From contig JBMNHS010000001.1 in assembly GCA_050950505.1 (NCBI GenBank), positions 288,001 through 352,000 of the forward strand: a stretch of DNA of 64,000 nt, given 5' to 3'. A program made the position numbers and the translations under genes. The number at the start of each line of letters is the position of its first letter. Positions within the stretch are counted from its first letter, which is position 1. A model generated the notes under the pieces. It searched no databases and had not been told where the DNA came from. It saw nothing but the letters and a program-made list of their open reading frames with translations. This stretch comes from Candidatus Methanomethylophilaceae archaeon. GTDB lineage: Archaea > Thermoplasmatota > Thermoplasmata > Methanomassiliicoccales > Methanomethylophilaceae. Below are positions 38,373 through 44,890 of the stretch, piece after piece.

Positions 38373-39992
38373 TCACTCATCCATATCCAAGTCGGACATG
38401 TCCATTTCCTGGGTGCTCGAAGATGCAATCACATCATCGATGCGCAGGATCATGACGGCAGTGTCGGTGGCGGCGTTGATTGCCTGTTTTCCAACCCTGT
38501 AGGGTTCCACAACATTGTTTTCGTACATGTCATCGACTATGCCGGTGAAGGGGTTGAGACCTGCGGTGATCTTACCCTCTTTGTGCTGTTTCCTCATTTC
38601 GATAAGGGTGTCGATGGGGTCGAGTCCGGCATTCTCGGCAAGTGTCGCGGGAATCACTTCCATGGCGGAGGCGTATGCTTCGAGAGCAATCTGTGCCCTT
38701 CCGCCGACGGATGATGCGTAATCCCTGAGGCGCATGGCGATTTCCATTTCTTTGGATCCGCCGCCGCATTCGATGAGGCCGTCTTCGATGGCCACTCTTA
38801 CCGCGGACCATGCGTCGACGAGGGATCTTTCGACTTCGTCCGCCACGTGAACGGTTCCGCCTCTCACGAGAACGGATACGGTCTTCGGGTCTTTGACGTC
38901 GGTGATGAAGGTCATTTCTTCGTTCTCGACTTTCTTTAGCTCGACGAGTCCGGCGTTTCCGAGGTCGTCCTTGGAGATGTCCTGGATTTTGTTGACGATA
39001 GATGCACCGGTGGATCTGGACAGTCTGTCCATGTCGCTCTTCTTGACACGTCTGCATGCATAGATGCCTTCCTTGGCAAACATGTGCTGTGCCACGTCGT
39101 CGATTCCCTTCTGGCAGAATACGACGTTTGCACCGACATTCTTGACTGCGGTGACCATTCTCTTGAGCATGTTCTCCTCTTCCGCCACGAACTCGGCAAT
39201 CTGGTTGGGATCCGTTATCTGGATCTTTGCGTCCATTTCGGTCTTCTTGACTTCGAATGCCGCATCGATGAGCGCAATCTTTGCGTTCTTTATGGACTTG
39301 GGCATGCTGGGCTGAACCGGCTCTTTGTCGATTACGAGACCCTTGTGAAGTTCGGTCTCTTCCATTCTCGCACCGGCTTTCTTGACGGTCTGGATGTTGG
39401 TAAGATCGACTTTGTATTTTCCGTTCGCGTCCTTTTCGGCAACAGTCTTGACGGCGTCAACGACGAGTTCCGCAAAGAATTCTTTCGAACCGCTGACCTG
39501 TTTGCTGATCATTGCGACTTCGGCAACTTTTCTGAGAACGTCTTCGTCCTCGATGGTGACTTTCTTGGCGATGTCCAGGAGAACTTCCTGAGCCTTGTCG
39601 TTGGCCATCCTGTACCCGGCGGAGATAATCGTAGGGTGAACGTTGGCTTCGATCAAATCAACGGCTTTCTTCAGAAGTTCGCCGGTGAGTATGACGGAAG
39701 AAGTTGTTCCGTCACCGACTTCGGCGTCCTGCGCTTTTGCGACTTCCACCAGCATTTTTGCGGCGGGATGCTGAACGTCCATTTCCTTCAATATTGTCAC
39801 ACCGTCGTTGGTGATTACGACGTCGCCCAAAGAGTCAACGAGCATTTTGTCCATTCCCCTGGGGCCCAAGCTGCTTCTTACGGCATCGGCGATGGCCCTG
39901 GCGGCGGCAATGTTGTTGAACTGAGCATCTTTTCCTTTGTTTCTCTTTGTTCCTTCTCTGAGAATCAGAACAGGTGTGTTACCCATACCCAT
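38373..39992 (-). CDS. ths: Thermosome (group II chaperonin) subunit
   Basis: [27 protein letters not shown] and ILRIDD. Confidence 0.97.
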
Positions 39993-40062: not shown

Positions 40063-40603
40063 CCTATCATTCAGATGCACACAATCCGCTTTATCTTCCT
40101 GTTGAAGAAACACCCCCGGAAAAACCGTGCTGAATGTGTTGTCCGTTCATACCGGAAAGACGGTCACGATACTGATTGGCGGACAGGGCGTCTCCGCGAC
40201 GGGAAGAATCCTCGTCCGATAAAATGATCTCCGAACCTTTCTGTGGAATGCATTGGAGAGAAGTAAACAGAAATACGCAAAAGTGACTTAATTTTCCGAG
40301 AAACCCCTTATTCGCGCGGATTATAATGGGATACCGACAGTTTATGTTATATCCTATCTATCAATACGTAAGAGGGAACGTTGGAATAAACGGACCCGTG
40401 AAACGCAGGAACACACGATAAAGTTTAACAAACAAAACTTATGTCGGATGTCTGCCCGCGTGTTTGCGGAATCCTCCGTACAGCGGTACGGAATGATGAA
40501 CACAAACATGATTCCGAAAGGGTCGCAAAAGTCAGAAAAATGACCGGGGTACGGACTCCAAACATCAGAATCCGCAAAATATAATCATCAAGGAGTGATA
40601 GAA

Positions 40604-41137
40604 ATGCCGATGGAAAAGTTGATCGAACAAGAGGAAGGAATGGATTCCCTCATCGAACGTGTCGGTCTGTATATTCCCATTTACAGGGGATACAAAGAAC
40701 AGAATCTTCGCAGGGACGAAGACAGAGCCATAAGGCAGGAACTTGTACTCACGCTCGAAGGCGCCGAGGAAAACATGAAAGTTATTTCGGAAGCTTCCGC
40801 GGAAAGCACCGATATTGCCGCCGATGTCGACAGAATAAGCGAAAAAATCAACGTATTCCTGGAATCCGTGGCTGAAAACGTCAACGGATACAGCGGATGG
40901 CATGCCTCCGCCGATTCCTTGGAAAAGGAAATGGAAGAATTGGTGTCCTTGGATTCCAAATTGATAGAAGATACCGTTCTTCTCAGAGGGACCGTCGCCA
41001 ATCTCGTCCAGAAAATAGATTTGGGGGAATATGCCATAATGACCCCTCTCAAGGAAATTGAAAAGATTCTTGACAGATTGATCGAAGATTATGACGGCAG
41101 AGAAACCGTCATGAAAAAATTCCTCAAAGAAGTCTGA
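40604..41137 (+). CDS. Conserved hypothetical all-helical protein
   Basis: GGAGTGA RBS; IP.YRGYKE...RR.EDRAIR motif; followed by a T-rich terminator-like tract. Confidence 0.8.
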   Translation: MPMEKLIEQEEGMDSLIERVGLYIPIYRGYKEQNLRRDEDRAIRQELVLTLEGAEENMKVISEASAESTDIAADVDRISEKINVFLESVAENVNGYSGWHASADSLEKEMEELVSLDSKLIEDTVLLRGTVANLVQKIDLGEYAIMTPLKEIEKILDRLIEDYDGRETVMKKFLKEV

Positions 41138-41349
41138 ATCCGAATCTCCCCGTCCTCTGAGGTTTCGGTACCGTTTTGAGTTTTTTGACGGACACGGTTG
41201 TTTCTTTTCTGTTTATTTTTCAGAATCTGCCGCGCATAGCGGCGTTTCTCATTTTATTCTTATTTTTCACTCAAATACACTTTTCAACAAATAAAATACG
41301 ATATTCGTATTAATAATTCGATAATCAACGTAATTCGTTATTCGATTGG

Positions 41350-41357
41350 TATAAATA
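41350..41357 (+). promoter_or_regulatory. TATA box upstream of the structured RNA candidate
   Basis: TATAAATA about 25 nt before the first stem at 41383, within very AT-rich DNA. Confidence 0.55.
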
Positions 41358-41374
41358 GTAGAAAAATAATGTAA

Positions 41375-41560
41375 GTGTCGGTGGCAGGGAGTCGCCGACG
41401 AGCCTACAAGACCCGAAAGAGCGGCAAGTACGTTCGAAGACAAAATTCCGGAAGCAAGGAGCAGGAGACCGGTCTGTTGACACTCTACTCTGATTGACCC
41501 GGAATGAAAAACGTACTTCGAGAACCCGCAACGGATGACCCGATTCCCTGCCCACATCCA
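41375..41560 (+). ncRNA. Candidate ~175-185-nt structured non-coding RNA, family unassigned
   Basis: GC-richer block with nested stems 41383-41394/41541-41552, 41426-41434/41510-41518 and 41445-41451/41499-41505; TATA upstream, T-run downstream; no credible ORF. Confidence 0.6.
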
Positions 41561-41625
41561 TTTTTGCGTTTCTTCTTCAGGATAAAAATAATATTCTGTC
41601 ACGCGTTCGCTTATACGGAAGACTC

Positions 41626-42150
41626 ATGAAAACCGTTGAAGATTATATCGTAACCGTGCCCGATTTCCCCCATAAGGGGATAATGTTCAGGGACGTCACA
41701 ACAATTCTGCAGGATGAAAAGGGATTCGCGCTGGCCGTTGACGGCCTGAAGGATATGCTCGACGGTGTTGATTTCGACCTTATCGCCGGATCGGAATCCC
41801 GGGGATTCATTTTCGGGGCTCCGGTCGCTTACGCAATGAATAAAGGATTCCTTATTGTGAGAAAGGCCGGAAAACTTCCGAGGGAAACGGTTTCCGAAAC
41901 TTATGATTTGGAATACGGAACCGCGACTTTGGAAATGCACAAAGACAGCGTAAAACCCGGTCAGAAAGTCGTAATCGTCGACGATCTTATTGCCACCGGC
42001 GGAACCACCGAAGCCATAATAAAAATGATTGAAAAACTGGGCGGCGAAGTCGTAAAGATCTGTTTCGTCATAGAATTGGCGGGATTGAAGGGCCGGGACA
42101 AGCTGAAAGGTTACGACGTGGAGTCTCTGGTCGTTTATCCGGGCAATTGA
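41626..42150 (+). CDS. apt: Adenine phosphoribosyltransferase (bacterial type)
   Basis: PDFP..GIMFRD, ESRGF, RK.GKLP, LEYG and VDDLIATGGT. Confidence 0.96.
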   Translation: MKTVEDYIVTVPDFPHKGIMFRDVTTILQDEKGFALAVDGLKDMLDGVDFDLIAGSESRGFIFGAPVAYAMNKGFLIVRKAGKLPRETVSETYDLEYGTATLEMHKDSVKPGQKVVIVDDLIATGGTTEAIIKMIEKLGGEVVKICFVIELAGLKGRDKLKGYDVESLVVYPGN

Positions 42151-42577: not shown

Positions 42578-43331
42578 TCAGACATTGTATCTTTTCCACC
42601 CTATGCCGTCGATGCCTCGGATGCCGCTCATTAAACGAGGATAGATATGCTTCTTGAACGCATCACTTTTTTCTTTGATACAATCCTCAAATTTTCCGTC
42701 GGCTATGTAATTTAATGCGAAATTTGCGATAACGTCACATATCTGTAATTCCGGCCATTCATGAGAAAGCCCTCCCAATATGTTCGGTATAATCATCGTG
42801 ACACAGTTTTCTCCTATTATGCGGATTCACGTATTCTTCTATGAGTTTACTGAAATCGTCCAATTCTTGTGTGTCTGAAAGATCCCAAATGATAATGTAT
42901 CGGTCATCGCCCATATGATTGGCATAACCGGATATCCTTTCCATCAAAAGTTCTCTGGCTATATCTTTCGGCAATACGCCCTTGGATGGGTTTGACGGAA
43001 TGAACATGCTAGTAGGCGTTTCCGGATTATTACAGGTTGAAGTAATCCATACTTTAAGGTTGAATTCGTCAATCGATTCAGCAATGCGTCTGGCAATGTC
43101 ATCGGCGGTCACTCCGTCCTTTAATTTATTTCCGGACACTCCCGAGCCTTTCAATTCCTTCTTTTCATACATTCTCATACAATCTCGTTTTAAGCTCTGA
43201 AATTGTATCGATAATTCATCATGTGTACTCATATCCGCACATATTCCGACGGAGACCCAGACATTGCCTTTGTTATTATGCGGAGATCCTTCTCCCGATT
43301 CATCAATAAATATAGTTTTAAACAGTGACAC
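42578..43331 (-). pseudogene. DUF3800-like (RNase H-fold) gene split by a frameshift near 42796-42810
   Basis: ORF1 has FIDESG and ELKG; the overlapping ORF2 in another frame carries S..WPELQICD (QxxD motif); AT-rich. Confidence 0.7.
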
Positions 43332-43680: not shown

Positions 43681-43752
43681 CGGGCCCTCCGGGATTCGAA
43701 CCCGAGTCCTCGGCTTCGAAGGCCGACAGGATATCCGCTACCCCAAGGGCCC
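43681..43752 (-). tRNA. tRNA-Arg(TCG)
   Basis: GGGCCCT acceptor, TCGGC-CTTCGAA-GCCGA anticodon arm, GGTTCGAATCC; CCA not encoded. Confidence 0.96.
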
Positions 43753-43843: not shown

Positions 43844-44890
43844 ATGGCAAAAGTCGTAATGAATCACGGGGCGGGCGGGGAGGCCATGCAGGAATTTCTG
43901 TCAAAACACATAGTGTGTCATTTTCCCAAAACCGAGTCCGAAGTGTCCCTGGATTCCATGGACGATTCCGCCGTGATCGACGGCATCGTATTCACCATAG
44001 ACGGACACACCGTGAAACCTTTGGTTTTCCCCGGCGGGGATTTGGGAAAAATATCCGTAGCGGGAACCGTCAATGATATTTCGGTCATGGGCGCTGAACC
44101 CCTGGCCATCGGATGTTCCACCATAATCGAAGAAGGCCTTGAAATCTCGACCGTCGACGAAATCATGGCGAGCGCGGGAAGAACCAGCGAGGAATGCGGA
44201 GTGCCCATCGAGACAGGGGACACCAAGGTCGTGGAAATGGGAGCCGTGGACAAAATGTTCATGGCGACTTCCGCCGTGGGCAGAAGATCGAAATACCTCG
44301 ATAAAAACTTCGATACCGCCAAAGAATACAGAAAGGTCAAAGAAAACTGGTGCACCGATTCCAACATTGCGCCCGGCGATGCCATCATCGCATCCGGATA
44401 TTTCGGAGACCACGGAATCGCCCTGATGTCCTTCAGGGAAGGATACGGCTTTGAAAGTGAAATACAGAGTGACGTTGCACCTTTGAACAAGATGATTGAA
44501 AAAGCCCTCAAAGTCGGCGGGGTGGCGTCCATGAAGGATTCCACCCGCGGAGGTCTCGCGAACACCCTGAACGAATTGGCTTCCAAATCAAAAGTGGGAA
44601 TGGAAATCGAATACGCATCGATACCCCTGAGAGACGGAGTGATCAATGCCTGCGACCTGCTGGGTCTGGATCCTTTGAGCATAGGCAACGAAGGCAAATG
44701 CGTCATCGGCTGCGTGCCTGAAATGGCCGACGAGATTCTGAAAGCCCTCAGATCCACCCCCGAAGGGAAGGATGCGGCAATCATCGGATACGCCAATGAC
44801 GGACCGAACAGGGTCATTCTGAGGACGGAAGTGGGGGGACGGAGGATTCTTGAACCTCCGATCGGAGATCCCGTACCGAGAATCTGCTGA
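43844..44890 (+). CDS. hypE: Hydrogenase maturation protein HypE
   Basis: HGAGG, FPGGDLG, GTVND, GDTKVV, D.TRGG, NEGK and C-terminal PRIC. Confidence 0.96.
   Translation: MAKVVMNHGAGGEAMQEFLSKHIVCHFPKTESEVSLDSMDDSAVIDGIVFTIDGHTVKPLVFPGGDLGKISVAGTVNDISVMGAEPLAIGCSTIIEEGLEISTVDEIMASAGRTSEECGVPIETGDTKVVEMGAVDKMFMATSAVGRRSKYLDKNFDTAKEYRKVKENWCTDSNIAPGDAIIASGYFGDHGIALMSFREGYGFESEIQSDVAPLNKMIEKALKVGGVASMKDSTRGGLANTLNELASKSKVGMEIEYASIPLRDGVINACDLLGLDPLSIGNEGKCVIGCVPEMADEILKALRSTPEGKDAAIIGYANDGPNRVILRTEVGGRRILEPPIGDPVPRIC

Follow-up and report, generated by a model that had tools for sequence, protein, structure and literature searches.

To our knowledge, archaea have very few known structured noncoding RNAs (ncRNAs) apart from guide RNAs and those that are universal. 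The RNA described here is encoded in a 64,000-nucleotide stretch of the genome of a Candidatus Methanomethylophilaceae archaeon (GCA_050950505.1, contig JBMNHS010000001.1, positions 288,001 to 352,000 of the forward strand; the window), and it resembles several described systems in part. The raiA motif RNA, an orphan RNA of bacteria, has the same size of about 200 nt, several covarying stems and conserved junction letters, and likewise forms a transcript of its own that adjoins a particular gene without proven regulation. That RNA is bacterial, whereas the RNA of the window has an archaeal host, an archaeal TATA promoter, a spread confined to one family and no match in Rfam. Bacterial 6S RNA (RF00013) is similar in size, abundance and elongated fold with internal loops, but here its model does not match, a conserved helix divides the central loop into asymmetric parts, and many relatives lack the RNA. 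Archaea do not possess a sigma-70 holoenzyme. Riboswitches with a terminator, such as the purine and phosphoribosyl pyrophosphate (PRPP) classes, share a closing helix P1, conservation centered on junctions, a 3′ hairpin overlapping P1, and a purine-salvage gene downstream. In contrast to these, the RNA of the window matches no Rfam riboswitch, appears as a discrete and abundant species, contains no such hairpin, and precedes a gene with its own TATA-like box. Finally, H/ACA, C/D and L7Ae/K-turn RNAs are also archaeal, promoter-driven and structured; the window RNA carries an ACA after P1, and typical members of its family contain a CUGAUGA that looks like box C and a GCGG-CGA-GA stretch that looks like the bulged strand of Kt-7.

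The gene in question occupies positions 41379-41566 on the + strand of the window (G000:C1:329379-329566, where G000 is the genome to which the window belongs). The explanation we prefer, with a probability of about 0.5, is that a gene of its own here encodes an ncRNA of ~185 nt, abundant and with a stable fold, that is a diverged member of an undescribed family and would act in trans by binding protein. That the locus is a real new RNA gene we hold to be very probable; that its product is a trans-acting protein binder is a tentative proposal, to which we give somewhat less than even odds. A search of the full-text literature returned no published description of this RNA. The ncRNAs of Methanomassiliicoccales were called with Rfam only (PMC4153887), and the text of that paper, Table S1 aside, describes no structured ncRNA for this order beyond such calls.

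The elements of the window gene, all on the + strand, are the following.

41297-41309: palindrome TACGATATTCGTA, ~45 nt upstream of the TATA box, a candidate regulator site
41350-41357: TATA box TATAAATA, part of the conserved GATATAAATAGTAG promoter
41377-41381 and 41395-41399: the words GTCGG and CCGAC
41379-41566: RNA gene, with a predicted start at ~41379-41381 and an end at or before the T5 run
41383-41394: P1 5′ strand GGCAGGGAGTCG, pairing with 41541-41552 (12 bp, one G-U)
41395-41420: J1/2, diverged; segment comparison finds it without the AAU(C/A)GGNAAACG motif of the family
41421-41424: P2 5′ strand GCGG, pairing with CCGC at 41526-41529
41426-41434: P3 5′ strand AAGTACGTT, pairing with 41510-41518 (9 bp)
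41445-41451: P4 5′ strand ATTCCGG, pairing with 41498-41504 (7 bp) and present in the centroid fold
41458-41491: apical irregular hairpin GGAG-CA-GGAG-ACCG-GUC-UGUU-GAC-A-CUCU-A-CUCU, the best-conserved block across the genus
41458-41467 and 41483-41491: the weaker arm GGAG-CA-GGAG/CTCT-A-CTCT within this hairpin, with the cap GTC-TGTT-GAC at 41472-41481
41498-41504: P4 3′ strand CCGGAAT (sequence and fold)
41510-41518: P3 3′ strand AACGTACTT (sequence and family covariation)
41526-41529: P2 3′ strand CCGC (family alignment)
41533-41540: GGAUGACC, possibly what is left, in a shifted position, of the ...CUGAUGA-CCGC junction strand of the family, otherwise missing from the window copy
41541-41552: P1 3′ strand CGATTCCCTGCC (sequence, fold and genus covariation)
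41554-41556: ACA, 3′ of P1
41561-41565: T5 run, a likely archaeal terminator, bridged by no contig

A sequence-only reading of this DNA had proposed a promoter-preceded, T-run-ended structured RNA of ~180 nt. Its TATA box, stems, ACA and T-run are all in the sequence, at most one base from the places it gave, and both words of a hairpin suspected of competing with the outer stem are there as well. The rod with a large bubble drawn in that reading keeps its stems and loses its open bubble, which is split by a fourth helix that had been missed (P2). The GC content is 0.46-0.53 within the element and 0.24-0.31 just upstream.

Support for the gene comes from its homologs. A BLASTN search with 41340-41590 against 41 related genomes matched 12 including G000 itself; matches to a core at 41449-41500 were found in 11 of the 15 genomes of the same genus, and there were 0 matches in the 25 genomes outside it. 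RNAalifold predicted 45 pairs from 11 genus sequences. In a cleaner set of nine, with an adjusted structure, 93.4% of the cells pair and two-sided change is seen at 12 pairs, compared with 1-4 in slid controls and 0/500 shuffles. Relative to other members of the genus, P1 shows a C-G/U-A exchange at pair 7-195 and a G-C/A-U exchange at pair 9-193. We then described the family by a covariance model (R1: 204 positions, 45 pairs), built partly from the window sequence, which it matches over 41379-41566 with 126 bits (E 5.6e-33). Across 76 distinct family sequences, 88.9% of the cells pair and 38 of the 45 pairs show compensatory change. The 472 compensatory cells observed compare with 141 ± 12 in shuffles, none of 500 reaching the observed value, and with ≤80 in slid controls. 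Since this alignment was fitted to the covariance model, it favors structure; nevertheless, with an effect this large and G-U pairs this common (pair 2-387, for instance, is G-U 21 times and pair 55-300 28 times), fold and strand are secure. The G-U pairs would be A-C mismatches on the other strand and so fix the gene on the + strand.

The individual helices behave differently in this alignment. P2 (G-C, C-G, G-C, G-C) is unchanged in all 73 sequences that have letters there, P3 covaries more strongly than any other helix of the family and includes all four Watson–Crick pair types, and the apical pair switches between C-G (23 sequences) and U-A (40). A pseudoknot between AUCAGU in J1/2 and ACUGAU in J3/2 is possible; inspected by eye, it includes a variable position without clean covariation. 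Folding of the window sequence alone is not significant: the minimum free energy of −55.6 kcal/mol (z −1.28) was equaled by 22 of 200 shuffles, and the minus strand gave z −1.62, so that we discarded single-sequence folding as evidence for the RNA. On this point the doubt voiced in advance, that folding may be no better than in shuffled controls, is borne out for the single sequence; the homologs and compensatory stems named alongside it as checks were found. A gene on the minus strand was rejected on account of the conserved promoter on the + side and the A-C mismatches. We also rejected a protein-coding reading of the open reading frames (ORFs) at 41267-41602(-), 41325-41561(-) and 41375-41497(+), as homologs show gaps of 1, 2, 7 and 11 columns together with paired changes.

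Promoter and transcript point to a gene of its own. The promoter TATAAATAGTAG, which all copies have in common, lies ~25 nt before the first G of the window RNA, the 3′ end carries the T-run, and the spacing from TATA box to start resembles that of the tRNA promoters of this genome. Among 11 oriented genus sequences, the promoter CGAYTGRTATAAATAGTAG is invariant ~25 nt upstream of a G-rich start; TATAAATAGTA is invariant in 11/11 and recurs before the copies in other genera. Upstream of the TATA box, near-identical forms of the palindrome TACGAWWTTCGTA precede both copies of the RNA in G000 (see below) as well as copies in other genera; the second G000 copy has TACGAAATTCGTA in the same relative place as TACGATATTCGTA in the window. 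None of the 41 tRNA promoters listed contains this palindrome. Because it is common to the RNA copies and missing from tRNA promoters, it suggests a candidate site for a dedicated transcription regulator. The full 13-mer form precedes only the two RNA copies in the genome, and a loose pattern gave no clear enrichment: contig C1 has 30 sites, its shuffles have 10-26, and the genome as a whole has 36.

To examine expression we used assembled contigs from four of nine available runs; these four are labeled as RNA and come from four studies, three being recorded as metatranscriptomes and one perhaps of DNA. Over the 801-nt stretch 41100-41900, each run gave one contig of 151-161 nt that lies wholly within 41388-41554, with a contig word depth over the RNA from 2.5 to 372. 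No contig from these runs covers the upstream gene or apt, the adenine phosphoribosyltransferase gene downstream, and none bridges RNA and apt; we did not take the uncovered parts for silent flanks. The contigs differ from the window by A>G at 41507 in a junction and by one C fewer at 41498 at a helix end. An abundant, discrete small RNA would be expected to yield just such short contigs, limited to the element and recurring in four studies, in agreement with the ~180-nt transcript anticipated by the sequence-only reading.

A typical member of the family is built as follows, from 5′ to 3′.

(1) P1 5′ strand, GGAGG(U/C)AAG
(2) J1/2, ~30 nt, with AAU(C/A)GGNAAACG; conserved letters AAUNGGNAAACG
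(3)-(5) GCGG (P2), CGA (J2/3), and the 9-bp P3
(6) a variable inner domain leading to the conserved tip GAAAGACUGGUC-loop-GACACUUUC
(7)-(8) P3 3′ strand, then J3/2, GCAAGACUCGAC(U/G)GAUGA; conserved letters GCAAGACUCGACUGAUGA
(9)-(11) CCGC (P2), (A/G)ACAAAC, and an optional covarying hairpin
(12)-(13) P1 3′ strand CCUUACCCC, then a 3′ hairpin and/or a T-run

The most conserved letters of these RNAs are the unpaired junction strands J1/2, J2/3 and J3/2, and the loops are asymmetric (~26-30 nt opposite 6-11 nt, and 3 nt opposite 18 nt). This architecture bears on the comparison with 6S RNA, according to which the RNA would be an open-bubble rod that binds RNA polymerase. Size, abundance and an elongated fold with large internal loops agree with such an archaeal counterpart; on the other hand, the invariant GCGG/CCGC helix splits the bubble, the loops are strongly asymmetric, and no Rfam 6S model matches at E ≤ 10. 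The RNA is also missing from many close relatives, which would be odd for a global polymerase regulator. We consider a 6S-like function highly improbable, and the rod of this type suggested from the sequence did not hold up.

Neither did the search for other known families identify the RNA. At gathering score, Rfam 15 finds six tRNAs in the whole window and none at 41350-41575; at E ≤ 10, the two matches in 41200-41700 are at chance level and both lie outside the RNA; and at E ≤ 5 none of six typical loci has a match on the RNA. The RNase P RNA (205.6 bits) and the signal recognition particle (SRP) RNA (157.1 bits) of this genome are located elsewhere, so the earlier remark that the element shows no RNase P, SRP, tRNA or riboswitch signature stands. 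Two further suggestions of the same reading were not supported. A retron is at odds with the absence of RVT_1 (PF00078) matches in the genome, which is 99.6% complete, in a search whose control matched in 3 of 14 named genomes; an H/ACA guide is at odds with the ACA after the closing stem, which occurs in this genome only, or 1/11 genus sequences.

Several other likenesses were considered, and most were discarded. For a box C/D sRNA, the C-like and D-like words are in the wrong order, and the would-be guide between UGAUGG and CUGA is a 9-nt spacer that is itself a covarying stem strand. For a K-turn in standard placement, the would-be G-A positions in P3 covary as Watson–Crick pairs (G-C 45/A-U 16/G-U 11 and A-U 46/G-C 23). 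In typical members, J2/3 (CGA) could still form tandem G-A pairs with the ...GAUGA beside P2; both strands are missing from the window copy. The combination of CUGAUGA with a GAA beside a helix recalls the hammerhead ribozyme, but there is no stem I, an extra C is present, and Rfam gives no match. A mimic of the 16S rRNA 3′ end, GUAACAAGGAUCUGCGG, occurs only in some genera, and the 16S rRNA of G000 itself has CUGCAGAU at that place. In typical members such as L118, P1 reads GAGGU(A/G)AG/CUUACC(U/C)C, the letters of a eukaryotic 5′ splice site and the 5′ end of U1 small nuclear RNA, which we take to be a coincidence.

The window copy departs from the typical form. Together with its closest relative, G015, it keeps P1, P2, P3, P4 and the tip, and has none of the consensus of J1/2, J2/3 and J3/2. 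Its 126 bits on R1, a model built partly from it, compare with 210-228 bits for typical genus members, and we read it as a diverged member of the family. The window copy, G015 and L135 each lack J2/3 as well as J3/2, and L134 has both in altered form (L134 and L135 being the first two relatives examined in g8, a genus missed by R1); by this comparison the two strands look like one module.

The genome contains a second copy outside the window (C1:898568-898769; L117:2001-2202; 55.8 bits, E 3.7e-13). This copy keeps J2/3, J3/2 and a recognizable variant of J1/2, and has the same type of promoter with the palindrome. Since it retains the junction strands that the window copy has lost, the two G000 copies probably diverged in partner or role. 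G015 and G008 also carry a second copy. These second copies represent a subfamily (UGAGGUGAGACC...) that is the form found in a further genus, and in six of the seven loci examined this form lies 69-93 nt upstream of a gene for a QueG/dehalogenase-like Fe-S protein. The neighbor is a 247-aa 4Fe-4S protein (L118:2271-3011; also in L119, L125, L070, L077 and L088), whose QueG score of 44.8 bits, far under the cut-off of 200, indicates a distant likeness to QueG or reductive dehalogenases. Downstream of the second G000 copy, cas3 (Cas3_HD + DEAD) starts after ~410 nt in place of the Fe-S gene. The second subfamily thus precedes a different gene, or none that is conserved, which shows that the RNA family is not fixed to apt.

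Loss of the junctions raises the question as to whether the window copy is a decaying duplicate, still transcribed from a strong promoter, whose job has passed to the second copy. Its low R1 score, its missing junction consensus, and the canonical J2/3 and J3/2 in the second copies of both G000 and G015 would fit this idea. Against it, the helices of G000 and G015 have been kept by two-sided changes (by eye, U-A to G-C and C-G to U-A in P3), promoter and apical hairpin have both stayed intact, the four runs show the RNA to be abundant, and G008 still keeps a typical apt-linked copy next to its second one. Decay of the window copy therefore appears improbable.

The gene that follows the RNA, and its promoter, lie at these positions of the window.

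41582-41593, + strand: TATA-like box ATAAAAATAATA of apt, found by eye, outside the RNA and given as context
41626-42150, + strand: apt, adenine phosphoribosyltransferase (NCBIfam NF002633, 241.5 bits, cut-off 224)

In all 12 genus loci the RNA stands just upstream of apt on the same strand. A wider set of 113 neighborhoods, redundant and with some loci incomplete at their ends, has apt downstream on the same strand in 82, mostly 35-130 nt away, and an SPFH gene upstream of the RNA in 59. By eye, a TATA-like box can be recognized 27-44 nt ahead of the ATG of apt in each genus inspected; in the rest of the genus of G000 it is the invariant CTTTTTATACTG. Because apt has this box of its own, we regard the RNA as a separate gene and not as the apt leader; the arrangement fits an apt mRNA that is nearly leaderless with its own promoter. 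A close apt homolog (E ≤ 1e-20) was found in none of five genomes from other families (G025, G027, G029, G030 and G139), all without the RNA, a weak result given that no positive control matched; this type of apt may be confined to the same lineages as the RNA.

The surroundings are otherwise as follows. The conserved block consists of a 177-aa protein without Pfam family, an SPFH/Band-7 zinc-ribbon protein (371 aa), the RNA and apt (window 40601-41134; L018:189-1301), and the SPFH gene is absent from the block in G000 and G015. Ordinary genes flank the locus, namely a thermosome subunit (Cpn60_TCP1, 38373-39992(-)), a tRNA (43681-43752(-)) and an AIR-synthase-related gene (43844-44890(+)). 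A link to a nearby DUF3800 gene, proposed earlier, was not upheld: the ORF at 42759-43328(-), 189 aa, matches DUF3800 below threshold (E 0.0016, 19.6 bits, cut-off 21), and no DUF3800 gene was seen beside the RNA in the homologous loci looked at, in which no search aimed at this family was made.

We next consider the distribution of the RNA. At E ≤ 0.01, R1 detects full-length relatives in 57 of the 121 genomes from the taxonomic family of G000, representing 9 of 19 genera, and in 0 of 32 genomes from the six other families of the order; all 83 loci submitted to the model match it. Among ~186,000 species genomes, 72 contigs match a 22-letter pattern drawn from the block with the highest conservation. 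Sixty-five of these are labeled Methanomethylophilaceae, Methanomassiliicoccales, Methanogranum, Methanoplasma, Methanoprimaticola or with a broader archaeal name. The remaining seven (L067, L073, L087, L093, L097, L105 and L115) sit in bins labeled Bifidobacteriaceae, Bacteroidaceae, Lachnospiraceae, Ruminococcus, Bacteroides ovatus or Firmicutes; they carry the archaeal RNA-apt pair and are therefore probably mis-binned archaeal contigs. To date the RNA is recorded from a single family of the order; the titled contigs that carry it are mostly labeled Methanomethylophilaceae or Methanomassiliicoccales, and many of them derive from gut or rumen samples.

In g8, 20 of 21 genomes have apt, and inspection by eye found a diverged RNA upstream in only 6 of 21 apt loci, with the same promoter type and the motifs GGAGGCG..AAUAGGNAAACG and ..CGCGGCCAAAC. 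In the other 15 a coding gene abuts apt, without such an RNA upstream. BLASTN with one g8 RNA within its genus returned only itself (1/21), and R1 with filters off scored six g8 candidates at 8-16 bits, amid noise. Homology of the g8 RNAs is weak, since it relies on synteny, promoter and motifs. That most g8 apt loci have no RNA indicates that the RNA is often lost while apt stays, and we read the history of the family as one of duplication, divergence and repeated loss.

How might such an RNA work? In the fold, the closing helix P1 is followed by the invariant 4-bp P2 (GCGG/CCGC), the 9-bp P3 and a long, irregular hairpin whose tip is conserved. We propose that in typical members the conserved junction strands would form a composite binding surface beside P2. 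The RNA would act in trans as part of a ribonucleoprotein, either as a scaffold or as a protein decoy. The window copy would keep only the scaffold and the tip, its partner or role having probably changed. This proposal derives from the location of the conservation in unpaired junctions and from the joint absence or alteration of J2/3 and J3/2; if it is correct, the RNA would be neither an apt leader nor an antisense RNA. The latter possibility was addressed directly with the 22-nt block spanning J3/2 and P2, which has no complementary site in its own genome with ≤3 mismatches, while shorter motifs give chance-like matches only; an antisense target for this block was accordingly dismissed. The same result counts against a base-pairing regulatory small RNA that would present a short exposed seed to mRNAs, perhaps with an Sm-like protein on its 3′ U-tail. 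High abundance, a promoter of its own, restriction to one lineage and, in most members, a 3′ hairpin with a U-run would all suit this function; conservation across several junctions and a covarying 200-nt scaffold, in place of one seed, would not, and we judge it rather unlikely.

A number of observations weigh against a trans-acting protein binder of the kind we favor. The window copy is without the most conserved strands of its own family and could be decaying. The contigs that indicate expression are assemblies, giving no true ends, strand or copy number, and one of the runs may be of DNA. The RNA looks dispensable, as R1 has no match in 10 of 19 genera and most g8 apt loci do without it. 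Finally, several features are riboswitch-like: a closing helix is formed from the two ends, the conserved letters sit in junctions, the 3′ hairpin shares its CCCC with P1, and in both subfamilies a gene in the same orientation follows after 35-130 nt.

These last features define what we rank as the main rival, a cis regulator in which a metabolite, for instance a purine or PRPP, sets the choice between P1 and the 3′ hairpin with T-run and hence read-through into apt or the Fe-S gene. Junction-centered conservation and a closing P1 fit an aptamer, and in most members the CCCC of the 3′ hairpin also pairs with the 5′ GGAGG. By eye, this hairpin covaries (CCCC/GGGG, CCUCC/GGAGG, CCU/AGG, CCCG/CGGG). 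The position before apt in the 82 of 113 redundant loci, that of the second subfamily before the Fe-S gene and, weakly since no positive control matched, the five RNA-less genomes in which close apt was not found also speak for it. However, archaeal RNA polymerase stops at T-runs without a hairpin, a 3′ hairpin is entirely absent from the window copy, and apt appears to have its own promoter in every genus inspected. Moreover, RNA depth reaches 372 with no contig on apt or bridging to it, 15 of 21 g8 apt loci have no such RNA upstream, and no known riboswitch family in Rfam matches. A riboswitch-like function is for these reasons unlikely. The same applies to the switch for apt considered in the sequence-only reading: its premise, conserved adjacency of RNA and apt, was confirmed, but apt has its own TATA-like box and the contigs stop before it.

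A further speculative reading combines elements of both, in that the RNA would represent a stand-alone orphan aptamer class. The ligand of its conserved junctions would be either a metabolite related to purines or a factor of transcription or translation, global action in trans like that of 6S or CsrB would be joined to gating of read-through into apt, and these roles would be split between the G000 duplicates. We give this combination little credence.

The comparison places a well-supported new RNA family in methanogens, with a clear promoter, strong covariation and signs of high abundance. These properties make the family well suited to pull-down experiments, probing and structural study. 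Should the RNA turn out to be a sensor or to act as a protein decoy, it would represent a new kind of RNA regulation in archaea; otherwise, the family would still be useful as a marker and as annotation for these genomes.

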